Source of the DNA: a virus
DNA: 64,000 nt
Strand: one strand, 5' to 3'
Virus record (IMG/VR): IMGVR_UViG_3300021977_000001
Both the position numbers and the translations under genes were made by a program. Shown here in pieces: positions 1,518-14,687 of the stretch (position 1 is its first letter; each line of letters opens with the position of its first letter). Under the pieces are notes generated by a model. The model was not told where the DNA came from, did not search any database, and saw only the letters and a program-made list of their open reading frames with translations.

Positions 1518-3392
1518 TTAGCGGTTCCACAGGCTGCCTGCGTTACGTGCACCGTAACCCATGCCAGAACCACCCCAGTTAGAGCCGCCTTGCTGGAAGA
1601 CTGCACCACCGGCGTTTTGACCAATACCCATACCAACAGCAGACGTATTGCCACGAATGGCACCCATGTCGTTACCGTAGATACCCTCAGGGCGGATCTT
1701 AAGTCCAGCTTCTGCACATGCCGTCGCAAGCGCTTCAATGAACTTAGGATTAAACGTAACACGACGCGCGTAACCTGTAATAGATACAGTATCACCTAAT
1801 GTAGCTTCGATGATTTTAGCACGCTCTGCCAGACGTAGTTCTTGAGGACGGTCAGTCTGGTCGTAAGTGTTACCGAATGCTTCAACGATACCTAGATCTT
1901 TATCACCGTAGATGTTAAGCATCGCTAGGTAATCAAGGTCGCGGATATCACGAGGCGTGTTGTTCTCATCTAGGTAAGTACCTAGGTGGATACGAGTAAT
2001 TTCGCTAGATAGCGGTGCAGAGCCATCGTAGTGGCGGCTAAATGCACCACCGGTCAATGTATCTGCTGCTTGGAACAATACTTGGTTAGCCTTAGTGTTG
2101 CCAGTGGCAGCAGCAAGGAACGTTTCTTGTAACCAGCTAAGATCACCTGTTTCTGGGATATCCCAAGAGAACAATACTTCATTGTACATGCTGCGCTGTA
2201 CAAGCTCAAACAAGCTTTGGTCTGAGAACGAGTCGCTCTTAGTTGTAATACGACCGAACTCGCCGTTGCCCGCGAAGTCTACTTCAAAGCCTAGTGCACC
2301 GATGTCATGAAGATCACCTTTAGACGCACCATAAACTGGCTTGAAGCACTTAACCCATGCGTGGTGCTGAGTTGCTAGTACTGAAGTAGATAGACCTAAC
2401 AATTCAAGCTCAAGCGTGTTTACGCTAAGGCCTGATGTTACGCCAGTCATGACTAGACGCGGTACGTATTGACGATGATCAACAGGCTGGCCGTATGCCA
2501 TTTGCTGTTGCTGACGTGGTACGTACGTTAGGTCCATATAACCATCAACTGTAGTCAATGGAATAGTTTGCTTAGCAGATACTGCTTCACCTGTCTGCAT
2601 GATACCGCGCAGCGAGATAGATAGATCAGAACGTACGGTTTGACCTGCTGCAGTTTGCGTATCACCTGGATTGTAACGAAGCTGCGCAGCTAACACGTCA
2701 CCTGTGTTGATATCTGCTACAGTGATAGCGTTGCTGTTGTCACCGTTTAGCTTAAGGATAGTTGTGTAACATGCTGTGATACCGAAGTATAGCAGGCTAC
2801 GAATCTCTTTCTCGCTGTCAGCAGTAAGATGCTTAGGAATAACGTTAGCACCAACATCTACGTAAGTACGTTCAGTACCGTACTTGCTACGTAGGTGCAT
2901 GTTAACCTGCTCCCACATGTTGTCATCGTACACATCGCCAGCTACAGTTTTGATGTTAACTTGCTGACCTGCGATGTTAGGTACACGATCAGCCAGGCCG
3001 TCGCCAGAACCTTCTACGATGTACGTGTAGCATGCTACATATTCGTTAAATGGGAACTGTAATACAATTACAGATAGCGCTAATGAATGGCTGTCACCGT
3101 CCATTGGTTCAATGGTCACTTTCTCAAGTACACCGTTACGCTCTGAAGATAGGATCTTACGTAACGTTTGCGTTAGCTCACCAGTGATTTCGCCTGCAGT
3201 GCTACGCGTCATTGGGTTGCTAAAGATTGAGTTTAGACCGGCTAGGGTTTTTGGACCTTCCACTTTTCTTCCTCGAGTTTGTTGGTTTGTCGGTTGGGCT
3301 TGTGCCTGCGCACTTGCTGCGCCTGACTCTTTCATTGCATCTGCCATAGCAGGGTTAGAAGGAGTAGACTTGTTATCTTTATTTACAGCCAT
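1518..3392 (-). CDS. chmA: Chimallin, major phage nuclear shell protein
   Basis: 624 aa with a Q/A-rich disordered N-terminus. Motifs DLHDIGALG, RDIRDLDYLAMLN and TGYARRVTFNPKFIEALATACAEAGL match remembered chimallin motifs (DMKDIGALG, RDRRDLDNLAALN, TGKAERCTYNAKFIEAL). Synteny with the nvRNAP beta' gene. Confidence 0.92.
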   Translation of the reverse strand: MAVNKDNKSTPSNPAMADAMKESGAASAQAQAQPTNQQTRGRKVEGPKTLAGLNSIFSNPMTRSTAGEITGELTQTLRKILSSERNGVLEKVTIEPMDGDSHSLALSVIVLQFPFNEYVACYTYIVEGSGDGLADRVPNIAGQQVNIKTVAGDVYDDNMWEQVNMHLRSKYGTERTYVDVGANVIPKHLTADSEKEIRSLLYFGITACYTTILKLNGDNSNAITVADINTGDVLAAQLRYNPGDTQTAAGQTVRSDLSISLRGIMQTGEAVSAKQTIPLTTVDGYMDLTYVPRQQQQMAYGQPVDHRQYVPRLVMTGVTSGLSVNTLELELLGLSTSVLATQHHAWVKCFKPVYGASKGDLHDIGALGFEVDFAGNGEFGRITTKSDSFSDQSLFELVQRSMYNEVLFSWDIPETGDLSWLQETFLAAATGNTKANQVLFQAADTLTGGAFSRHYDGSAPLSSEITRIHLGTYLDENNTPRDIRDLDYLAMLNIYGDKDLGIVEAFGNTYDQTDRPQELRLAERAKIIEATLGDTVSITGYARRVTFNPKFIEALATACAEAGLKIRPEGIYGNDMGAIRGNTSAVGMGIGQNAGGAVFQQGGSNWGGSGMGYGARNAGSLWNR

Positions 3393-4763: not shown

Positions 4764-5153
4764 TTACTTACGATACTCTGGATTTACATACCTAGCGCCC
4801 TTAGGCGGCAGTCTATCCATATATGGATTAGTAACCGTAGAAGTAATCTCACGTTCGTTAACGAAGAAAGCACGGCTGGCCAGATCACCTATAAAATCAC
4901 TAGGCACCTCCATAGCTTTGTTATGTTCAACATAACCCAACTCGTGATGTACTTCTATCGGGTTAACCCTACCGTCGGTGTGAATATGTAATATACGCAA
5001 GACGTCATTAGCTTTTGCATAGGGCATATCAAACTCACCTTCGGTTATATCAACCGCAGCAATAACACGCTGACCTGCCTTAAACATCGACAGCACCTTG
5101 TCTATACTGCTTCCCTTTCTGTGTTTAGGATATTGCATAAACTTATCACTCAT
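4764..5153 (-). CDS. Hypothetical protein
   Basis: 129-aa ORF directly downstream of the polymerase on the same strand. Confidence 0.7.
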   Translation of the reverse strand: MSDKFMQYPKHRKGSSIDKVLSMFKAGQRVIAAVDITEGEFDMPYAKANDVLRILHIHTDGRVNPIEVHHELGYVEHNKAMEVPSDFIGDLASRAFFVNEREITSTVTNPYMDRLPPKGARYVNPEYRK

Positions 5154-5160
5154 ACCCCAC

Positions 5161-7296
5161 CTACATAAAGTCGCTAACCAGTTTGGTTATATTTTTATCT
5201 TTCATGTAAACACCATACGTTTCTAATACTAAGTAGAAGGGTGCCATTGTAGTAAATACAATCTTGCGAATATCCATGCACTGGATAATCTCTTTAGGCA
5301 TTCCTTTAGTGCTGATTACATCCATGGGAATTAGAAATTGCGTGATAGATGTTGTTTTGTTATGCTTAACAATCCAATCTTCTAGCCTACTTGCTAATTC
5401 CTTATCCTCTATACTCTCTATCCATGCTCTAACTTTAGATACAGACGTTGACGTTAACGATACTTTCACCGTACTATAGGGTGGTGGCGGTACCTCTCCG
5501 TACTTAGGACCAAATACGCTATTCCAGAAATCGTAGAATATGTAATTAGATCCTTGCGGATTAGCATAGGAATCTGCAGACTTGATACCAGCAGTAGTAA
5601 GGTAATCAATCCGACCCTCTTTAAGACTGTTAATGATGAGGTGCTCCTGATCGGCCACTTCCTGCATCATGGTCTTAATGGATATCTTCTTACCTTCCAA
5701 CGTCCAGTCCATGGGTTTCATGATAAACTTGTGCAGTTTTTCAATGATCTCTTTAGGCGCTTTCGTTGATTTAAGTTCGACCCCTTTGATATCGGTCACC
5801 ATTTCTTTATAAACGTTGCCTTCCTGAGCACTGATGTAATACGCATAGTGTTTAGCACGGCTGGTCAGAGACAGGGCTGGCATCATGTATTCGTTCTTCA
5901 TGGATAACTTATACAGATCCGGTTTTGCCACACCCATGTTAGACGATAGCGATGCAAGCAAATGCATAGTGGTCATCTGTGCTAGATATACTACAAATGC
6001 CCAAATACTGGTTGTCTTCTCATCAAAGTCAACGACACCGTCCTTATACCACATCGTCCAATCTTGAACGGTAAATATCGTTGAGTCAGTATCCGACACT
6101 AATACGCCACGGCGGATAGAGTCAGGTAGTACAGCTACGCTGGCAGGTGGGTTGAGCGTAACCCAAAACGCTTTAAATAACACCGTATATTCTTTAAGTA
6201 AAGAAAAGATGTTATTAACTGAACTTGCAATACGTGCGTAGGTCTCAGGTTCTGCATCTTTGATAGCAAATATTGGCTTATTCTTTAAGTCAGGTGCGTG
6301 GAGTATACCCACATATGCTTCAAGATCACCATCCATTTCTTCAATAATAGATTCAGGGTTATCAATGACGGTATCAGAACATGTTGTAAAGCGATCTAAG
6401 AAAGTACGAACAAACTGAGGATTAAACTCACGAAGGTGGTAGAAATTACCCGTGTATACATAGGCGACGCGTTCAAGGTCTGATAGTTTACTTACTAGAC
6501 TCTCTATACGTGCATTCCACTGTAGGTTGCGCCAATATAGATCCGTAGAATATTTAATTGACGCACATGTCTCTTCTACGGTAGGAATGTGTAGATTATA
6601 GGTTTTCACCGCCTCATCTATTAACGCATAATCGCTATTGTTAATAACTGAAATAATGTTTTGTATTACCACATCCACATCGTAATAATGTCTATTGCCA
6701 AATAAGAAACGTTCGTTGTTAGCATTGGCATAGCCGGTCGCAGAACGACAGGTTGATGTTAATGTAGAGTGTGTAGATTTGTTATACAGTGGAGTAAAAG
6801 CTGAGGCATGTCCACCACTCACTGAGTTGTTCTTAATCTTGAAGGTTGATTGCAGTATATCGTAAAACCCCGCAGCCGCGTTATCGCCCGCCATCTTTGC
6901 TTTGAATTTCTGCTTCTTTACCGCGTTGCGCTTATCGACGTTCTTACGCATGTATTTAGCCAGGAGTGACTCATGCTGGTCAGGATGTCTGTATGCTGCT
7001 AGAGTCGGACTTACAATTAATCCTTCAGTTTCTACTTTCTGCATGTAGCCTAAGAAAGTAGTACTCCACTTATCACGTGTACCAGGCTTATCGCGCTTCA
7101 TAGCTAATACTGCTGGGTCTTTAAGTGGTAGACGTCCTTCAGTAGGGTGGGTTGTCTTTCTAACCCACTGGTAGCATTCGTCATGGCTCTTACCTGTTTC
7201 AAGTGCCAGATAACGGGCTGTATCTTGATAGTACCGTTCTAAGACGTTAAGGTCTCTACCGTATTCTTCAGTAGGGAGAACAAAAGGATTATCCAT
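5161..7296 (-). CDS. Family B DNA polymerase, polymerase-domain subunit (phiKZ gp50-like, split PolB)
   Basis: 711 aa with motif C VLVSDTDSTIF, a motif B-like QSTFKIKNNSVSGG, and AKHYA...DIKGVELK. No N-terminal exonuclease motifs recognised, consistent with the split polymerase of this group. Confidence 0.9.
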   Translation of the reverse strand: MDNPFVLPTEEYGRDLNVLERYYQDTARYLALETGKSHDECYQWVRKTTHPTEGRLPLKDPAVLAMKRDKPGTRDKWSTTFLGYMQKVETEGLIVSPTLAAYRHPDQHESLLAKYMRKNVDKRNAVKKQKFKAKMAGDNAAAGFYDILQSTFKIKNNSVSGGHASAFTPLYNKSTHSTLTSTCRSATGYANANNERFLFGNRHYYDVDVVIQNIISVINNSDYALIDEAVKTYNLHIPTVEETCASIKYSTDLYWRNLQWNARIESLVSKLSDLERVAYVYTGNFYHLREFNPQFVRTFLDRFTTCSDTVIDNPESIIEEMDGDLEAYVGILHAPDLKNKPIFAIKDAEPETYARIASSVNNIFSLLKEYTVLFKAFWVTLNPPASVAVLPDSIRRGVLVSDTDSTIFTVQDWTMWYKDGVVDFDEKTTSIWAFVVYLAQMTTMHLLASLSSNMGVAKPDLYKLSMKNEYMMPALSLTSRAKHYAYYISAQEGNVYKEMVTDIKGVELKSTKAPKEIIEKLHKFIMKPMDWTLEGKKISIKTMMQEVADQEHLIINSLKEGRIDYLTTAGIKSADSYANPQGSNYIFYDFWNSVFGPKYGEVPPPPYSTVKVSLTSTSVSKVRAWIESIEDKELASRLEDWIVKHNKTTSITQFLIPMDVISTKGMPKEIIQCMDIRKIVFTTMAPFYLVLETYGVYMKDKNITKLVSDFM

Positions 7297-7375
7297 AGTA
7301 CGCTCGTCTTTAATTTAGTTAGTTTACACTTCATGTTATTGGACTTAGGTGTATTTTTCAAAGCAAAAAAGAAAG

Positions 7376-7424
7376 ACGGCATAAAACCTTCCTACACCCC
7401 AGAGGAAGGATGTAGGAAGGGTAA
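7376..7424 (-). terminator. Terminator (hairpin + TTTTATGCCG) upstream of the polymerase gene
   Basis: CCTTCCTACA...TGTAGGAAGG stem; the minus strand continues TTTTATGCCGTCTTTCTTTTTT. Confidence 0.75.
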
Positions 7425-7564
7425 ACACTACGTTTGACAAATATAAAGGTGCGTGACTACCTTTAGGGATCGATCTTCTGGCTCAAGATCATGAACACCG
7501 CGAGGGTCTCAAACTCAACAACGTTCATAATATATACAGTAAGGTAAGTAAAACTTTACTTAGT

Positions 7565-7990
7565 TTAAACAACCTTACTACTACTGACCGTATAACCGTT
7601 TGCTGTAAGTGCAGCAAGGATGTTAGGCACATCGTCAACGTTAACGTTATCAATGGTTAACGTAAGTTTATTACTGCCTACCTTTTCTAAGGTAGTGGTA
7701 TCGATCCAAGGCAAACCAACAAATGTCTGCTCGCCATTTTCTAGTTCTATTTTTAGATAACTATAAATAGTTGGATCATCCACACTACCTTCAGGCAGGT
7801 TAGTGATAATGTCTTCATGTAGTGCAACGGGGTCGATCTTTTGACTAGCGGTACTATAATCTACTACCCCGATAAGACGAACACGGGTAAATGTTGTCCC
7901 TATTGTTGTGTTTTCAAATAAAGAAAAACTAACAACATCACGCAATCCGATGTCTAACGCAGGAAAGATCTGCATGGGTATAATCTCCAA
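7565..7990 (-). CDS. Conserved hypothetical protein (phiKZ gp49-like by position)
   Basis: 141-aa beta-rich ORF immediately upstream of the polymerase gene. The true start may be the ATG at 7975. Confidence 0.65.
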   Translation of the reverse strand: MEIIPMQIFPALDIGLRDVVSFSLFENTTIGTTFTRVRLIGVVDYSTASQKIDPVALHEDIITNLPEGSVDDPTIYSYLKIELENGEQTFVGLPWIDTTTLEKVGSNKLTLTIDNVNVDDVPNILAALTANGYTVSSSKVV

Positions 7991-8279
7991 AATATAATAA
8001 TAAGGTTCCAGTATCGTCAGTGACTTCTAAGAAACGAAAATCATCAGTATTGATATTGTAGCGACTTAATGCTGCAGAGATGCACTCTACCATAGCCACT
8101 ACCTGACTATGCCCCTCGCTGGTTGAATCGATGTTCCAATCTAGTAGCTCTTCTAGATCAAGATTTAAACGTGCAAGGGTTCGGGTATCTAACTTAGGAC
8201 TGTCGGGATTAACAACGCCATTATAGCTGTTAATTAACTCACCTAGTTCCTCTAAGTGAAGGATCATAAATTTAAGCAC
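7938..8279 (-). CDS. Small protein 9 of the phuZ-pol tandem array
   Basis: 113 aa; N-terminal strand KFMILH, C-terminal hairpin DDTGTLLLYF. Confidence 0.75.
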   Translation of the reverse strand: MLKFMILHLEELGELINSYNGVVNPDSPKLDTRTLARLNLDLEELLDWNIDSTSEGHSQVVAMVECISAALSRYNINTDDFRFLEVTDDTGTLLLYFGDYTHADLSCVRHRIA

Positions 8280-8324
8280 CTAAGTACTCCTTAATACAGC
8301 ATCTCCTGTAGAGATTTATTATTG

Positions 8325-8687
8325 TTAATTGTCTATAGGATCAGGTACACTAACGACAATGTCCATCCCCGCCATAGCTTCAAAACGCACTCTACCTACA
8401 TCACGAATGCCTAATTGATGAAAACACGTAATTAGGGTCTGAATGAATTGATCGATATATGCTAGATAGTTTTCTCTTTCTCTAACCGTTAGATTTTGAG
8501 TATGTAGGAAATCATAAATAGCTTTATGTCTTTGATTTTCTACATCGTTAACACTCAATGACGCAGCGTGGACAGACATAGAGATAACGGCATTTAAATC
8601 TGTAACCACAGTATCTTCAGACGATATAGACTGATATAACGCGCGTACCGCTGACTCGGTAGCGACGATATAGTGTTTAATATTCAT
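8325..8687 (-). CDS. Small protein 8 of the phuZ-pol tandem array
   Basis: 120 aa; KHYIVA ... GMDIVVSV. Confidence 0.75.
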   Translation of the reverse strand: MNIKHYIVATESAVRALYQSISSEDTVVTDLNAVISMSVHAASLSVNDVENQRHKAIYDFLHTQNLTVRERENYLAYIDQFIQTLITCFHQLGIRDVGRVRFEAMAGMDIVVSVPDPIDN

Positions 8688-8690
8688 ACT

Positions 8691-9038
8691 CTACTCTAAT
8701 TCTAGAAATAACGTATCATTATGCGTACAGATATAATGATACGTTGGTTTAAATCTAAGGGCGTGATTATGGTAGGTTTTAAGTTCTTTACAGAATGCGT
8801 CAAAATAAGGCATTGCTGCTTGACTTATAACCGGGAACTCATATTCTGTTTCAAAGTATTTACTTAGCTCCGTTGAGTCGACGCTCGCGTCATGCTTATA
8901 CATAGTAAGCACTTCTGCGGTTAGGGTGTCTTGGGTTACCGTGATTTGTCTTTTTGCTTCATAACGCCATACTGCTATCATAACGTCATAAATGGACTGT
9001 AATTTACTACAGTCCAATAAAAGTATTTTACTCGTCAA
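8691..9038 (-). CDS. Small protein 7 of the phuZ-pol tandem array
   Basis: 115 aa; KILLLD ... HNDTLFLEL. Confidence 0.75.
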   Translation of the reverse strand: MTSKILLLDCSKLQSIYDVMIAVWRYEAKRQITVTQDTLTAEVLTMYKHDASVDSTELSKYFETEYEFPVISQAAMPYFDAFCKELKTYHNHALRFKPTYHYICTHNDTLFLELE

Positions 9039-9399
9039 GATGATGCACCTCGATGACTAACGTCGGGAAACTAACGCATACGTAATTTAACAGCGGGCGA
9101 TTAGCCAGGGCGTTTATAATACGTCCTAGGCTTACGTCCACAGCCTCATACGTCTCCATTATAATATCATTAACATAATGATACAACGTCTCCTGCACCT
9201 CACTCTTACCTACACTCAACCCCATCCTACTAGCTACATATTCCACTACCTGCTCAACAGTGTTAACATCTAATCTATCATTGTCGGTATACTGATCTAT
9301 CCATAGCGCTACAGCGGCCTCTATGATGTCTGCAGGCGTTAACGAAGCCTCGGGCGGATATGGTGGTTTGTCTAATGGTAAATCTACTAATAGCTTCAT
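9028..9399 (-). CDS. Small protein 6 of the phuZ-pol tandem array
   Basis: 123 aa; KLLVDL ... FPTLVIEV. Confidence 0.75.
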   Translation of the reverse strand: MKLLVDLPLDKPPYPPEASLTPADIIEAAVALWIDQYTDNDRLDVNTVEQVVEYVASRMGLSVGKSEVQETLYHYVNDIIMETYEAVDVSLGRIINALANRPLLNYVCVSFPTLVIEVHHLDE

Positions 9400-9412
9400 A
9401 CAGTGCCTTTTA

Positions 9413-9826
9413 CTATTGGTACTTGTATATTACAGTACCGTCATTCATAACTTCCACGTCTATCAACTCTACGTTAGGCATACGGCGTTGTAAGTTATCT
9501 ACGATGCGGGTAATAGGCCATGCTATAGCTAATGATAAATTAATCACGTGTGTTAATGCGTTATAATTCATCATACCTACACCGTCTTCATCGTAATTGT
9601 CAAAGATGGTATATAACTCCCCTTCTACATGATCCTTGACTTTAACCGCATCGAACTGCGTAGTTAGCGCTGAAGAAGCGGCAAGTAATACTAAATCATG
9701 TACATTAAGTTTAAAGGCTTCCATTGCCTTAATATCATCATGGGTGGTCTTTAACATATACTGTCCCGCATCTACGATGAAGTACTGTTCATCTGGACCA
9801 CTAGCTACATTCCACATAAAGGTCAT
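9413..9826 (-). CDS. Small protein 5 of the phuZ-pol tandem array
   Basis: 137 aa; QYFIVD ... NDGTVIYKY. Confidence 0.75.
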   Translation of the reverse strand: MTFMWNVASGPDEQYFIVDAGQYMLKTTHDDIKAMEAFKLNVHDLVLLAASSALTTQFDAVKVKDHVEGELYTIFDNYDEDGVGMMNYNALTHVINLSLAIAWPITRIVDNLQRRMPNVELIDVEVMNDGTVIYKYQ

Positions 9827-10184
9827 CTCCTATACATCTAGCTACTACTAGATGCGTAAAAGGATGTTGTTGATAAAATGAAAGTATAGTAGGATAGAGA
9901 CGTTTATAGATCTTTAACCCTATACTACATACGTCATCAACATCTTCCAAGGTATAGTCTTTTCTATGTTGTTCATTATAACTACTAAGCGCACGGTAAA
10001 GTAACCGTCTATCTAAATCGGTAGCTGACTGATCATGGTAGTATGTTTCAATGTTAGTCAATGCAGATATAGTCAGACTTAATAACTCATCTAACCTGAG
10101 GTTATACGTTTCTAACGACCCATTTAAGTGATTGTTATTACTTCGTATATCCCCAATGTCTAGAATTAAATAGCGTACTGCCAT
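9801..10184 (-). CDS. Small protein 4 of the phuZ-pol tandem array
   Basis: 127 aa; RYLILD ... GDDLYVEC. Confidence 0.75.
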   Translation of the reverse strand: MAVRYLILDIGDIRSNNNHLNGSLETYNLRLDELLSLTISALTNIETYYHDQSATDLDRRLLYRALSSYNEQHRKDYTLEDVDDVCSIGLKIYKRLYPTILSFYQQHPFTHLVVARCIGDDLYVECS

Positions 10185-10186
10185 GG

Positions 10187-10630
10187 TTAACTTTCCATTT
10201 GTTTGATTAACGCTTCAAGCTCTTGGTTACGCGCACGTAGCTGATTTAGCTCAACGTCACGACAATCACCATTATCTACGATACGATACTCCAACGGATC
10301 ATTCATCTTCTCATACTCGTAATGATGGCTAGCCATCTTGTCTGCACCAAGCAGCCGTGTTATGGTAGTATACATAGTACGGCGGATATCCTGCTTAAGT
10401 GCCTCTCTGATGTCAGCAATAGGACACAGACCCTCTAGCCACACCTCTGTGATATCCTCACCTACCATGTCTCGATGTTGTTCACCAAGTAGAAGTACTT
10501 CTAATTCGTAGTCGATTACTCTAGAATAATCTAAACACAGTAAATAAGCCCCGCCTACTACTGGTTCTAAATAATTAAAACATAGTGAATGTATAGCATC
10601 AAAGCTAACAAGAATAGATACTGGTTTCAC
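10187..10630 (-). CDS. Small protein 3 of the phuZ-pol tandem array
   Basis: 147 aa, GTG start; VSILVS ... NDPLEYRIV, plus a short coiled-coil tail. Confidence 0.72.
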   Translation of the reverse strand: MKPVSILVSFDAIHSLCFNYLEPVVGGAYLLCLDYSRVIDYELEVLLLGEQHRDMVGEDITEVWLEGLCPIADIREALKQDIRRTMYTTITRLLGADKMASHHYEYEKMNDPLEYRIVDNGDCRDVELNQLRARNQELEALIKQMES

Positions 10631-10634
10631 TGGT

Positions 10635-11228
10635 TCACCCTGTTAGATTAAGGTCTTTATCAATGATGAGTCTTAATACGTCATGCGTTAACTCGTCATG
10701 TCTTGCTGTTAGCTGCGCTTTTAGATCGTCACGCGTGGTCGCATTAGCTCGATGATTAGGGAGCTGCTGTTCTTGGTCTTTATATTGTTCCGATAACAAA
10801 GCCTGTAAACGTTCTTGGAAACTTAACGCGGTAGGATCTGAATGGTTGCCTAAGTTTTCTAAGACAATATCATCGTAGCTCTTGGTCACATTCCAAACAT
10901 CGTCAGTACGTAGAGGCACATAGCGTTGAAGTATATCGGTTAACCTTGCATCGATAGGGTCTATGCAGTTTTGATAGAACCTAGATGCAAAGACTGCATG
11001 CGTGGTCATCCAGGGATATAGCTGCTCTAATAGATCAGTCGTGGTGTCTACGCTGGGTGCCCAGTTAAAGGCATGACTCATCGCGTCATCGATTAGATGA
11101 TGTATAATCATCCTAGCGTCGTTACGCTTGACCGGGTTAGGGCGGTCAACGCTGTAAAAGAAAAGCGCTGATGTATTGACCAGGTTTTCTATAAACTCAT
11201 GTAAAGGGAGTATTATTTTTAGTGCCAT
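10635..11228 (-). CDS. Small protein 2 of the phuZ-pol tandem array
   Basis: 197 aa; KIILPL ... YDDIVLEN, plus a helical C-terminal extension. Confidence 0.75.
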   Translation of the reverse strand: MALKIILPLHEFIENLVNTSALFFYSVDRPNPVKRNDARMIIHHLIDDAMSHAFNWAPSVDTTTDLLEQLYPWMTTHAVFASRFYQNCIDPIDARLTDILQRYVPLRTDDVWNVTKSYDDIVLENLGNHSDPTALSFQERLQALLSEQYKDQEQQLPNHRANATTRDDLKAQLTARHDELTHDVLRLIIDKDLNLTG

Positions 11229-11242
11229 GGAGTTGGGTCCTT

Positions 11243-11599
11243 TTAGGCATTAACTATCAGTGTCTCATTTTTAATAATGGTTTTAACTGACGCATCGGGA
11301 TGCCATTGATTACTTACTGCACGGTATAGCTGTTTATCAACTAAACCTTTTATTACATCAGGTAAGCTGTTAAGGAAGATAACAGCACCTATAGGCATGT
11401 TGCCTTCTATCGGGTTGTCGTGATGAAGTACACCCATTGTTGCTAGTCTTTCGGAAAACCACTGATTTAACACAGCATCGATGTCGACGGTTGGATTACC
11501 TGCTAAGTGTTTAGATAGTTCTTCAATGAATGGTTTAGCGATATCGCGGGCGGTTGCGATATCAAATAGATAGTATTTAGGGGTTGTCATTATTACCAC
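11243..11599 (-). CDS. Small protein 1 of the phuZ-pol tandem array
   Basis: 118 aa; KYYLFD ... KNETLIVNA. Confidence 0.75.
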   Translation of the reverse strand: MVIMTTPKYYLFDIATARDIAKPFIEELSKHLAGNPTVDIDAVLNQWFSERLATMGVLHHDNPIEGNMPIGAVIFLNSLPDVIKGLVDKQLYRAVSNQWHPDASVKTIIKNETLIVNA

Positions 11600-11631
11600 C
11601 TTGTATACGAATTAGTGAGTAGTCTATACAG

Positions 11632-11639
11632 GTAATGTA
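11632..11639 (-). promoter_or_regulatory. Early-type promoter variant TACATTAC driving the small-gene array
   Basis: Minus strand CACACCTACATTAC, the same CACC-TAxATTAC context as the other early promoters in the window. Confidence 0.55.
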
Positions 11640-11659
11640 GGTGTGAAATATAATGATAA

Positions 11660-11691
11660 GCGGCATAGACGCCTCCCCTCAGGGAGGCGGT
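11660..11691 (-). terminator. Terminator after phuZ (hairpin + CTATGCCG)
   Basis: CGCCTCCC-loop-GGGAGGCG stem followed on the minus strand by TCTATGCCG; no long T-tract. Confidence 0.7.
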
Positions 11692-11710
11692 ATGGGTGCC
11701 GGGTGAGTAC

Positions 11711-12676
11711 TTATAGTACCATACCGTCTTTTGTTGTATTATCGCCACTACCGATATAGGTCTTACGATCAAGTGAACGCTTAGACGTAGACTTTTCGTA
11801 GGTACCGTGTGCTTTAGCAATACCTTCGTAAATACGTTCGATGCCAGTAGTTGAAATAACTAAATGCATGTCTGGTATCTCCCCTGTTTCATCGCGGTGA
11901 TAACCAATACATTGGTAATCTGGCGCTGCTTCAGGCATTGGCGTATCTGGGTCAGCAAGTAACGATGCGATAGAGATTGGCTCATTGATCCCTTCTACTG
12001 ACGTGTTATCACGTAGAATAGAAAGCTGACTTAACTGCGGCTCTACCTGAGATGCACGGTTGTAGTATAACCACGTCGATACATCTTTAGTATCTAGTTC
12101 TTTGTTATTACCAGACACAAGTGCCGAGATAGCACCAATCGCACCACGAATACGTTTATCAACTTCAGAACGTTTAACGTTGCTGCTGTTTTCTTCGTAA
12201 TAAAGCGTGATAGGTAGTTCGGCGCTTTGCGAGATGCTATCTAACGACTTAAGCGTATTAAGTGTGTTAGTACACGTAATGGCTGAATCTGTAGAACCTA
12301 CTACAATACAGATAAATGATTCTTCGCTATTTAGAAGATGGCGCGCAATAAGCGGACCAGCTACGCTACCGCTACCGCCTGCACCTGAAAACATTACAAT
12401 GTTAAAGTCACCCGGTGGGTGTAGTGAGACGATGTCTTTGATTGAATCAGAAATACGCTGATGGTTCTCACGACGAACTTTACCTGACCCATCTACATCA
12501 GGAAGAATATAGCACATGTCTTCAGTGATAGGATCTTCGATGTTAGACAGACTTGTGTCTACAAATGCAGTCTGGATGTCGGCGTAGATATCTGATGATT
12601 CAAGACCTACAAAAGGGGTTGCTAAGTTAACTGCACAGCCGCCAGCTGCGTAGATTCTTAAGGTATGTTTACTCAT
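11711..12676 (-). CDS. phuZ: PhuZ phage tubulin
   Basis: 321 aa: IYAAGGCAVN (T1), DGSGKVRREN (T3), SGAGGSGS (tubulin signature), ELDTKD (T7) and C-terminal DGMVL typical of PhuZ. Confidence 0.93.
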   Translation of the reverse strand: MSKHTLRIYAAGGCAVNLATPFVGLESSDIYADIQTAFVDTSLSNIEDPITEDMCYILPDVDGSGKVRRENHQRISDSIKDIVSLHPPGDFNIVMFSGAGGSGSVAGPLIARHLLNSEESFICIVVGSTDSAITCTNTLNTLKSLDSISQSAELPITLYYEENSSNVKRSEVDKRIRGAIGAISALVSGNNKELDTKDVSTWLYYNRASQVEPQLSQLSILRDNTSVEGINEPISIASLLADPDTPMPEAAPDYQCIGYHRDETGEIPDMHLVISTTGIERIYEGIAKAHGTYEKSTSKRSLDRKTYIGSGDNTTKDGMVL

Positions 12677-12857
12677 TAAATCGCCTCTTATTCCTAGATT
12701 GTTCGATAAAGTATGAAGTGAATATGAAATCTTTAACCTGACAATGAGTGTACATGTACGTTTAACTAATGCTGTCTACAGTGCTAGGTCTTCATAAATT
12801 AATGGAAAATGTATTAATTAACCTCATTATATCGTTTAATAGCTACGGGATATAGCC

Positions 12858-13643
12858 ATGAGCCCCATTCAAAAAGCCGTTCAGGATATTACGTTTAAAA
12901 TCCCACAAGAAATACTGAGGCAAGTCTTTATAGACAAACGGTTTAGCACTGTAAACTACCCTGTCTCTATTGAATCTCAAATTATCGCTAAAGTCGTACG
13001 GCCACGTGTATTAGTTGACTGTAACCTAGTAGGCGGGATGCAGGTCGAACTGTCTTTATCAAGTGCTAAGAAAACATACGATGATGGAAGCCATCAGATC
13101 TACGTTATACCTAAAACCGCCACCATGGGTCGAAGTATTATCTCCGTAATGAGTATTGGGTTTAATGAGAATGAGGCTAGTAGTACGTTCCAGACAACAT
13201 CTTCATTAATCCGTGAGTCAATGAACGTTATAGATGCGGTCAACGGATACGAGACAAACTCTACAGCTAGCGTGTCGCTAATTGAAGAAAACACCATACA
13301 CGTAGAATCTGAAAGTGTGCTTAGTAGTAACGCTACATTGCGTTGTATTGTAAGCAACGACCCGGACATGCAGAATCTAAACCCTAGAACCATTCCTGCA
13401 TTTACTAAACTGGTTGAGTATGCGGTTAAAAGCTACATATACAATCAGTCTATAATTAACATTGATACAGCACGTTTGCATGGTGGTCAGACGTTAGGTG
13501 TGTATCGTGACATGGTAGAAAGCTACGCCGACGCTGAAGAGCTTTATGTAGAATATAGAGATACGCGTTGGAAAAAGATAGCATTCTGCGACGATAAAGA
13601 ATCCTATTATCGCCACATTAAGTTAACATCATCAGGCGTTTAA
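12858..13643 (+). CDS. Conserved virion structural protein (phiKZ-like)
   Basis: 261 aa, divergent from phuZ. The MSPIQKAVQDITFKIPQEIL start resembles a family I recall from phiKZ-like phages. Its 3' end is duplicated at 14681-14733. Confidence 0.55.
   Translation: MSPIQKAVQDITFKIPQEILRQVFIDKRFSTVNYPVSIESQIIAKVVRPRVLVDCNLVGGMQVELSLSSAKKTYDDGSHQIYVIPKTATMGRSIISVMSIGFNENEASSTFQTTSSLIRESMNVIDAVNGYETNSTASVSLIEENTIHVESESVLSSNATLRCIVSNDPDMQNLNPRTIPAFTKLVEYAVKSYIYNQSIINIDTARLHGGQTLGVYRDMVESYADAEELYVEYRDTRWKKIAFCDDKESYYRHIKLTSSGV
13591..13643 (+). repeat. Copy 1 of a 53-bp recoded duplication (DKESYYRHIKLTSSGV*)
   Basis: 43/53 nt identical to 14681-14733; all differences within the coding frame are synonymous. 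Confidence 0.92.
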
Positions 13644-13646
13644 ACT

Positions 13647-13676
13647 AAGTAGGTCTTCGGACCTACTTTTTATACG
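13647..13676 (+). terminator. Intrinsic terminator with UUCG tetraloop
   Basis: AAGTAGGTC-TTCG-GACCTACTT-TTTATACG. Confidence 0.85.
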
Positions 13677-13724
13677 TTATCTATTTAATACTATGACTTT
13701 ATTTTTAACTAAAGAGTATTACTA

Positions 13725-14687
13725 ATGGGCGCGTATATAGATCTAGAGGGTAAGAGATTTGGTCGATGGCTAGTTGAAAGTAGGACTGATAATAATCGCT
13801 TCGGTCAGATACGATGGGCTTGTGTGTGCGATTGCGGTTCTGTAAAGAAAGTTATTGCAGGGAGTCTACTATCCGGTAAATCAACAAGTTGCGGATGTTA
13901 TCAAAAGGAAAAGATAAGGCATACTAGCCAGGTACACGGGATGTCGGCAGCAAAGGAATATAAATATTACCACGCTATGAAGGGTCGCTGTTACAATCCT
14001 AAAAATATTGACTATTACAATTATGGCGGACGTGGCATTAAAGTGTGTAAGCGGTGGCTTGATAGTTTTGAAAACTTCTTAGAAGATATGGGACCGTGTC
14101 CTAAAGGTTATACACTAGACCGTAAGGATAACGATAAAGATTACAGTCCAGAGAATTGTAGGTGGGCCAGTCGTAAAGAACAGGCTTTAAATAGAAGGAC
14201 TACAAGAACAGTCACCTATCATGGGGTAGAGACTACTTATGTAGAACTGTGTGAAAAGTTTAACATCAGTTTACCCGCTTTAAACTATCGCCTTTCGACA
14301 GGCATGTCTCTAGAAGAAGCATTAAATAAACCCATACAAGTAAGAAAACATACCATCCCAGTTATATGTTTAGATGTTAAAGAAGGGAAATATACAATAT
14401 TTAAAACATATAACGAAGCTGTAACGTTCTTTAATAATAAAGAATCTAGTTTAAGAAGAGCAATTGATTTAAAGAGAATATATCTATCAAAGTATCTAAT
14501 AAAGTATTCTGATGATAGTTCATCCTGGGATCGTTTTACCGGTAATTTCAAAATGACTGATGACGTTGTTATTGAATTAGAGGATGGGGTTTTAATAATC
14601 TTTAACAACATCTGCGAAGGTTTAGAGTATTTGGATAGAAATGATATTGACATAGATAGCTGTAAGATTAAATCACTGATACGATAA
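13725..14687 (+). CDS. HNH homing endonuclease
   Basis: GKRFGRWLV...WACVCDCG...GKSTSCGC, YHAMKGRCYNPKNIDYYNYGGRGIKVCKRWLDSFENFLEDMG and TLDRKDNDKDYSPENCRWA are the classic phage HNH pattern, followed by a probable DNA-binding C-terminus. Confidence 0.92.
   Translation: MGAYIDLEGKRFGRWLVESRTDNNRFGQIRWACVCDCGSVKKVIAGSLLSGKSTSCGCYQKEKIRHTSQVHGMSAAKEYKYYHAMKGRCYNPKNIDYYNYGGRGIKVCKRWLDSFENFLEDMGPCPKGYTLDRKDNDKDYSPENCRWASRKEQALNRRTTRTVTYHGVETTYVELCEKFNISLPALNYRLSTGMSLEEALNKPIQVRKHTIPVICLDVKEGKYTIFKTYNEAVTFFNNKESSLRRAIDLKRIYLSKYLIKYSDDSSSWDRFTGNFKMTDDVVIELEDGVLIIFNNICEGLEYLDRNDIDIDSCKIKSLIR

Follow-up and report, generated by a model that had tools for sequence, protein, structure and literature searches.

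Nine small genes (o1 to o9), closely packed and co-oriented between phuZ and a gp49-like SH3DP gene, are found in the 64,000-nucleotide stretch of IMG/VR virus record IMGVR_UViG_3300021977_000001 analysed here and called the window throughout. The window comes from an uncultured marine chimallivirus, i.e., a nucleus-forming jumbo phage. The best supported description of the nine is a fast-diversifying tandem family with one small fold, shared with the import factor Imp2 of phage phiKZ, in a fixed slot of chimallivirus genomes. An import-adaptor function of the array proteins is plausible, at rather under an even chance. Imp adaptors were already known; the family-wide, duplicating array would be a new form of them. 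In the literature searched, nobody describes the phuZ-gp49 interval as an array of paralogues, places Imp2 in a wider fold family, or treats gp43 as having two domains that other phages encode separately.

A probable tandem family of small genes

The nine genes are listed here in transcriptional order, with protein lengths in amino acids (aa); f numbers denote families of array proteins and L numbers the viral loci compared below.

11243..11590, minus strand: o1, 115 aa; family f3; first-position gene; the open reading frame (ORF) finder extends it to a GTG at 11599
10635..11228, minus strand: o2, 197 aa; homologue of the N-terminal half of phiKZ gp43 (split form)
10187..10630, minus strand: o3, 147 aa; paralogue of o2; equals the C-terminal half of long gp43-like proteins
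9801..10184, minus strand: o4, 127 aa; o5 is its paralogue, and profiles link it to o8
9413..9826, minus strand: o5, 137 aa; 26-nucleotide overlap with o4
9028..9399, minus strand: o6, 123 aa; resembles o7 weakly and collinearly
8691..9038, minus strand: o7, 115 aa; strand, four helices and hairpin (AlphaFold2)
8325..8687, minus strand: o8, 120 aa; predicted fold as o7; wider superfamily f1, f9, f10, f26, f30, late in arrays
7938..8279, minus strand: o9, 113 aa; last before the SH3DP gene; positional counterpart of phiKZ gp48/Imp4

An earlier note, made from the sequence alone, had described nine co-oriented ORFs of 113-197 aa, and all nine are present in the ORF list at these coordinates, on the minus strand. 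The tight packing it reported is confirmed by gaps or overlaps of 14, 4, 2, -26, 13, -11, 3 and 45 nucleotides from o1 through to o9. Its remark that pairwise identity is not obvious also holds, since plain comparison yields only weak collinear matches. The start of o1 is most likely the ATG at 11590 (115 aa), not the GTG at 11599; AAGGTGG precedes the ATG, and the version in relatives is 115 aa long. Orthologues of o1 occur in L091 (a TARA scaffold and a close relative of the window), L005, L010 and L019, and at the first or second position in L031, L032 and L035.

On comparative evidence all nine ORFs are real genes, because their order is conserved in relatives, the ratio of non-synonymous to synonymous substitution rates (dN/dS) is far below 1, and metatranscriptome assemblies contain them. 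Relatives whose PhuZ is 87-90% identical keep all nine in the same order, with protein identities of 36-85%. Values of dN/dS are 0.04-0.33 wherever a Nei-Gojobori (NG86) estimate is possible; dS is saturated, and o4 and some other pairs yield no such estimate. The genes nevertheless change quickly, with dN 2-6x that of PhuZ or the polymerase. In both o7 and o9, the sheet strands are better conserved than the middle helices, the pattern expected from a shared docking part with variable client faces.

Kinship among the nine has been detected with profiles. For example, o2 and o3 align by hhalign at 87% (E 4e-6, 117 columns) with profiles drawn from related loci. The pair o4 and o5 reaches 59-70%, and the hidden Markov model (HMM) of o4 matches o5 at E 1e-5 among window ORFs; o4 and o8 reach 59%. 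A weaker value, 19% over 76 columns, is found for o6 and o7, which show 25% identity over 101 aa by blastp. The maximum in 72 reversed-alignment controls is 2.2%. All remaining pairs among the nine are silent in hhalign, o1 against all others included. No family is assigned to any of the nine by Pfam and PHROG scans, megablast of the array region against phage records gives no match, and an ESM Atlas look-up of o1 returns the sequence without a model or usable neighbour. HMMs of all array families find no extra copies among the remaining ORFs of the window, outside the array.

Structures were predicted for the last three genes, which share one frame. The o7-o8-o9 stretch was folded by AlphaFold2 as a read-through chain, with stops written as G and an 8-row alignment; the arrangement of domains relative to one another in such read-through models is meaningless. 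A search of 5.8 billion proteins with this read-through returned 8 close relatives only, and therefore no deep alignments exist for o7-o9. MAFFT alignments with partial rows were discarded: short homologues landed on the wrong domain. The model (m0ffed19dccc5) has a mean predicted local distance difference test score (pLDDT) of 71, with domain cores at 74-93. In o7 (residues 1-115) a strand at 5-9 is followed by four helices and by strands at 101-106 and 109-113, with pLDDT of 59-93 over the block and 74-93 over residues 11-100. The o8 domain (residues 118-237) is built likewise, from a strand at 120-125, four helices, and strands at 218-223 and 226-232. The o9 domain (residues 254-366) has three helices and a hairpin (334-339/346-350); its N-terminal strand is of low confidence.

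Similar predicted proteins in BFVD come from the same group of phages. The named matches of the o7-o9 model at probability 0.9-1.0 are all small chimallivirus proteins, from Noxifer, Eowyn, Ea35-70, Desertfox, RSL2, RP12, RP31 and PhiEaH1. The top match is a gp43-like protein of Noxifer (365 aa). Target-normalised template modelling scores (TM-scores) are lowest, about 0.2, with the long gp43-like proteins and reach 0.77 with the small ones. Matches that agree in length with array genes are found in Noxifer (365, 167 and 136 aa), Eowyn (147 and 123 aa) and Ea35-70 (127 and 100 aa). Against the PDB, neither Foldseek (with the o7-o9 model) nor VIA-align (with this model and the Imp2-Imp4 model described below) returned anything above helical-bundle expectation, which is not proof of a new fold.

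The earlier note had ascribed one plan to all nine proteins, i.e., an N-terminal hydrophobic strand, a helical core and a C-terminal hairpin. The models bear this out for o7 and o8 and, in its helices and hairpin, for o9; the N-terminal strand of o9 is the part left in doubt by its low confidence. For o4, o5 and o6 we infer a shared fold from the profile links. A profile link joins o2 and o3, and the gp43-like BFVD matches support the same plan in them, while o1 follows it in sequence pattern alone. By a crude, post hoc test, 7 of the 9 ORFs carry both end motifs; the share is 34% among array families and 14% among control ORFs taken from upstream of phuZ. The note's further claim, a tandem expansion of one fold, agrees with the profile links, with the identical AlphaFold2 topologies of o7 and o8, and with recent duplicates inside the arrays of relatives. 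A single expanded Imp2-like fold is thus well supported for most members.

The same slot has been compared across 80 viral loci fetched via PhuZ, and annotated regions from nine named phages were added. The interval from phuZ to the SH3DP gene is 1.5-9 kb long in 76 loci and contains between 3 and 18 small ORFs, all co-oriented. At E 1e-5 the 564 distinct interval proteins form 263 clusters, and the sole broad family is that of o2, o3 and gp43 (64 members). Among the 58 clusters with at least three members, hhalign gives 30% or more for 12 of 1653 pairs. Three superfamilies emerge: one of gp43/o2/o3 with f8 and f51; one of f1, f9, f10, f26 and f30, which o8 joins via f10 at 95.6%; and one of the last-position families o9, f7 and f18, in which o9 and f7 reach 74-91%.

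Recent duplicates lie side by side in L019, L029, L032, L063, L068 and Noxifer (L090, Noxifer_37/38). In L062 a two-gene unit of families 26 and 10 has been duplicated, and L019 carries two extra paralogues (13234-14023; E 1e-7 to each other) between its orthologues of o5 and o6. Neighbouring duplicates in so many arrays mean that duplication in place is ongoing.

With an iterative o2 HMM, 64 loci each yield a single homologue, phiKZ gp43 included (E 5e-28), and o3 has been found in 31 loci. Genomes carry either one gp43-like gene (~350 aa) or two adjacent family-0 genes (~170 aa each; in this phage and many others, about 200 and 150 aa). The phiKZ-like phages have the single form, at 342-377 aa (e.g., L011:15878-16951 and L012:11342-12415). 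The o3 HMM matches residues ~200-350 of gp43-like proteins of 347-357 aa, for example in L039 (E 1e-8) and L011 (E 2e-6). Because it is the C-terminal half of the long forms that corresponds to the o3 profile, o2 and o3 together (10187-11228) are read from their sequences as a split form of phiKZ gp43, produced by gene fission or fusion. The window resembles phiKZ in that o2 is a clear homologue, o3 equals the C-terminal half and the place in the array is identical. In contrast to phiKZ, 201phi2-1 and Noxifer, which have one protein of 351-365 aa, it has two genes, of 197 and 147 aa. From the fission or fusion an o2-o3 heterodimer is predicted.

A member of this family in Serratia phage Moabite, gp030 (L016:14580-15059), matches the gp43/o2 HMM at E 6e-22. 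An HHpred probability of 61 had led to its annotation as a 'thymidylate kinase-like protein', which is probably wrong, since the protein belongs to the gp43/o2 family.

Relation to Imp2 and Imp4

Two genes of the phiKZ interval have a known role. Imp2 is an import adaptor for Nlp1, itself imported through Imp1. The genes imp2 and imp4 are orf47 and orf48, and their products have been considered possible specific adaptors; Imp4, together with Imp5, is required for import of host TopA, mutants of Imp2 and Imp4 were selected on import and not on replication, and both proteins are conserved by sequence among Pseudomonas phages only (bioRxiv 10.1101/2024.03.27.586873). Later papers term Imp2 and Imp4 cargo-specific adaptors and state that transposon insertions disrupting either gene were absent. 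The supplements of the paper on transposon-insertion sequencing (TnSeq) are without entries for orf43-48. To our knowledge, named import adaptors (Imp2, Imp4, Imp5 and Imp7) exist for phiKZ only, and the preprint describes them as limited to Pseudomonas phages.

The map positions of Imp2 (orf47) and Imp4 (orf48), which the earlier note had given, are correct in the phiKZ record, where both lie between phuZ (gp39) and gp49/gp50. They are the last two genes ahead of gp49 (SH3DP) and gp50 (polymerase), the slots occupied here by o8 and o9, and o9 is directly upstream of the SH3DP gene as gp48 is in phiKZ. The profile comparison that the note had proposed linked no window protein to phiKZ Imp2 or Imp4 (hhalign 0.1-1.9%); among the other genes of the phiKZ interval, gp43 is matched by o2. 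No pair in the full set of families reaches 30% to Imp2, and a scan of viral contigs with phiKZ gp47 found nothing.

Predicted structure brings Imp2 closer to the array. A same-frame read-through of gp47 and gp48 from the phiKZ-like contig L095 was folded by AlphaFold2 (model m9b334ddbded8); with this chain, too, a search of 5.8 billion proteins gave few close relatives and no deep alignment. The Imp2 part consists of a strand at 28-35, helices, and a hairpin at 145-154/159-168, with pLDDT of ~70-89 over residues 30-170. The order of secondary-structure elements is identical in the models of o7, o8 and Imp2. In BFVD the Imp2-Imp4 model finds Imp2 orthologues first (E 2e-29 to 9e-9) and then the same kind of protein as o7-o9. 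The two top-50 lists have 13 entries in common, three of them Imp2 orthologues (Noxifer 167 aa, PS119XW and Phabio), which the o7-o9 model matches at probabilities of 0.90, 0.66 and 0.54, all weak scores. BFVD holds ~350,000 entries, and therefore the overlap expected by chance is far below one.

On these models Imp2 (gp47) appears to have the fold of the array proteins. It is a near-end gene of its interval, with the element order of o7 and o8 and with BFVD neighbours in common, and its family is narrow and fast-evolving, as are the array proteins. Unlike the nine, phiKZ Imp2 is larger (178 aa), has an N-terminal helix and a longer last helix, and shows no sequence or profile similarity to them.

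For Imp4 the likeness lies in position and in the hairpin. Like phiKZ Imp4, o9 is last before the SH3DP gene, is of similar size (113 versus 127 aa) and ends in a C-terminal hairpin with a D-x-x-G turn. Such a hairpin is found in 15 of 37 last-position families, o9 and Imp4 included, as against 24 of 239 families elsewhere in arrays. Imp4 is linked weakly, via this hairpin, to other last-position families of phiKZ-like phages, and the best local alignment of the o9 and Imp4 groups pairs the last helix and the hairpin. On this basis o9 and Imp4 may be orthologues. Unlike o9, phiKZ Imp4 has been reported as limited to Pseudomonas phiKZ-like phages.

Candidate functions of the array

The best explanation of the whole is a one-fold tandem family acting as import adaptors, a reading that approaches an even chance without reaching it. 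The fold would consist of an N-terminal strand, a bundle of 3-4 helices, and a C-terminal hairpin whose two strands and the first one make up a three-stranded sheet. The family would have grown by local duplication (o2/o3, o4/o5 and the recent copies of relatives), by fission or fusion (o2 and o3 from gp43) and by very fast divergence, which would account for the 3-18 genes and 263 clusters seen in 76 chimalliviruses. Each member would be an accessory factor of the phage nucleus whose fast-changing helical face binds one phage or host client. The client would then be passed on to the common import machinery, Imp1/PicA, so that the members would act as cargo-specific import adaptors like Imp2 and Imp4. 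This function is inferred from fold and position.

A fuller version extends this to every chimallivirus. The Imp2-fold cassette between phuZ and gp49 would be a nuclear cargo-recognition repertoire with one paralogue per client; new specificities would arise as genes duplicate in tandem, split or fuse and as the helical face changes rapidly; the conserved sheet or hairpin would dock on Imp1/PicA; and Imp2 and Imp4 would belong to a system found throughout the virus family, with o8 and o9 as their counterparts here. In that entirety the proposal is unlikely.

Several results weigh against the import-adaptor reading and the single fold beneath it. The modelled members (o7-o9) derive from an artificial read-through chain with a shallow 8-row alignment, their model has no BFVD match at E <=1e-3, and the Foldseek E-values across folds are weak (0.008-0.15). 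The Imp4 half of model m9b334ddbded8 is unreliable (pLDDT 27-49). A profile of the Imp2 family (7 members) reaches only 0.1-0.7% by hhalign against o1 and o4-o9, and o9 with f7 and f18 reaches 1.9% against Imp4 with f54 and the last Noxifer gene. The D-x-x-G hairpin motif was defined post hoc, and the helices of o8 are not its least conserved part. Just two of ~10 genes in the phiKZ interval are known import factors, so that fold and operon do not by themselves transfer the function.

The extreme turnover of the array, with its hundreds of clusters, may also be read as the mark of early host-takeover or anti-defence proteins that reuse the fold as a scaffold and diversify in the cytoplasm against host clients (defence systems, metabolism), apart from nuclear import, with Imp2 and Imp4 as specialised offshoots. 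The narrowness of the families (for o7-o9, 8 proteins among 5.8 billion), a dN several-fold over that of core genes and a promoter motif of early type complete a set of usual hallmarks of a phage-host arms race, and Imp4 itself handles a host protein, TopA. However, 76 loci all have the array in this one place, flanked by core genes of the nucleus and of replication, and it is co-transcribed with the conserved gp49-like gene. The gp43 family (64 loci) and o3 (31 loci) are broad and not host-specific, and the sole members of known role act in import. A host-takeover role for the array is somewhat unlikely.

The company that the genes keep could point instead to accessory subunits of replication or DNA metabolism, which would assemble in the nucleus with each other (e.g., o2 with o3), with the SH3DP protein and with the polymerase. 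The unit is shared with SH3DP, whose domain owes its name to an association with phage DNA polymerases, and the polymerase gene is directly downstream. Fusion of o2 and o3 in phiKZ-like phages and their separation here predict mutual binding, and translational coupling is probable where o4 overlaps o5 and o6 overlaps o7. Replisome subunits, however, are normally constant in sequence and number, in contrast to the 3-18 rapidly turning-over genes seen here; a terminator sits between the unit and the polymerase gene; and the mutants of Imp2 and Imp4 came from an import selection. A replication role is distinctly improbable. That the nine are unrelated small proteins with a generic alpha/beta pattern, on which AlphaFold2 forced a similar solution from shallow alignments, would suit the lack of profile similarity in most pairs (the 12 of 1653 above), the weak Foldseek E-values and the 14% of control ORFs with both end motifs, but it is barely credible in view of the o2-o3, o4-o5 and o4-o8 links far over reversed controls, the recent duplicates within many relatives' arrays, and the BFVD results, in which the named high-probability matches are all from chimalliviruses and 13 of 50 entries are common to two independent models.

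The import-adaptor reading touches on how a protein shell chooses its cargo in nucleus-forming phages, which lack a signal-peptide system. If one Imp2-like fold family exists in all chimalliviruses, each phage, uncultured marine ones included, would have a short list of candidate adaptors. It would also explain the failure of sequence searches to find Imp2 and Imp4 elsewhere, and the adaptor question would become open to structure-guided comparison and to the existing EcoRI-fusion selections, applied to gp43-gp46 and to the arrays of Goslar or RAY.

Transcription unit and flanking genes

The other features of the region are as follows.

11711-12676, minus strand: phuZ; best named relative Xanthomonas phage RTH11, 40% identity
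11670..11690, minus strand: GC-rich hairpin just past the phuZ stop
11632-11641, minus strand: candidate early-type promoter CCTACATTAC, inside a conserved block downstream of phuZ
7565..7990, minus strand: gp49-like SH3DP gene (outside the nine); PF20287 E 1.8e-29, phiKZ gp49 E 5.5e-21
7387..7420, minus strand: intrinsic terminator with a 14-bp stem and a T-run, between the SH3DP and polymerase genes
5161-7296, minus strand: divergent DNA polymerase gene, downstream of the SH3DP gene
1518-3392, minus strand: chimallin gene; matches gp54, E 3e-40

Chimallin, PhuZ, the divergent DNA polymerase and Imp1/PicA, which characterise the Chimalliviridae, are all found, and synteny comparison gives a phiKZ-like order. 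The Imp1/PicA homologue of the same phage is at L094:1486-2958 (E 4e-44), and PF25677, PF20286 and PF20287 are all detected on the relative L091. The SH3DP gene has been found in 73 loci. Its product belongs with the gp49-like SH3DP proteins (PF20287), a different fold class from the nine, and compares with them at <=2% by hhalign. A conserved ORF of 129 aa (4764-5153, minus strand; 132 aa in L091) lies directly after the polymerase gene; it has no family match and is outside the array families.

The longest SH3DP ORF begins at TTG 7990 and overlaps o9 by 53 nucleotides (7938-7990). The real start is probably further downstream, because the SH3DP proteins of relatives are 136 aa long.

The genes o1 to o9 and the SH3DP gene form one transcription unit, which runs from the CCTACATTAC motif to the terminator. 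An early-type promoter had been placed at 11632 in the earlier note, and this position corresponds to the conserved candidate motif. It resembles the early-promoter core of phiKZ, which we take to be TATATTAC. The block around it is nearly invariant in five relatives (including L091, L005, L010 and L019), down to 57% PhuZ identity. The stem of the hairpin at 11670-11690 is preserved in five relatives as well, in L019 with different bases. This hairpin is likely to be the 3' end of the phuZ transcript, parting phuZ from the array. At the other end, the terminator at 7387-7420 is the only intrinsic terminator within 7300-13000.

Metatranscriptome libraries of three studies yielded contigs over the array. 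Those that cover phuZ (three studies) stop at 11676-11687, and in run X1 one contig stops and the next starts at 11640/11641. Downstream, an X1 contig stops at 7382, 5 nucleotides past the terminator stem, and carries nine A there that the template lacks (minus-strand sense), possibly because the array/SH3DP transcript is polyadenylated at its 3' end; in X2 and X3 the contigs stop at 7430 and 7490. Such ends are a weak hint of transcript ends, since contigs are assemblies. The depth of these contigs over phuZ, the array and the polymerase is unfit for ranking expression, and DNA carry-over is possible.

The sequence CCTAYATTAC occurs in 6 copies in the window, on the minus strand every time. 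Besides the array motif, five more CCTATATTAC copies are found on the minus strand, at window positions 849, 34537, 35148, 56369 and 58772, and each is a candidate promoter of the class represented at 11632.

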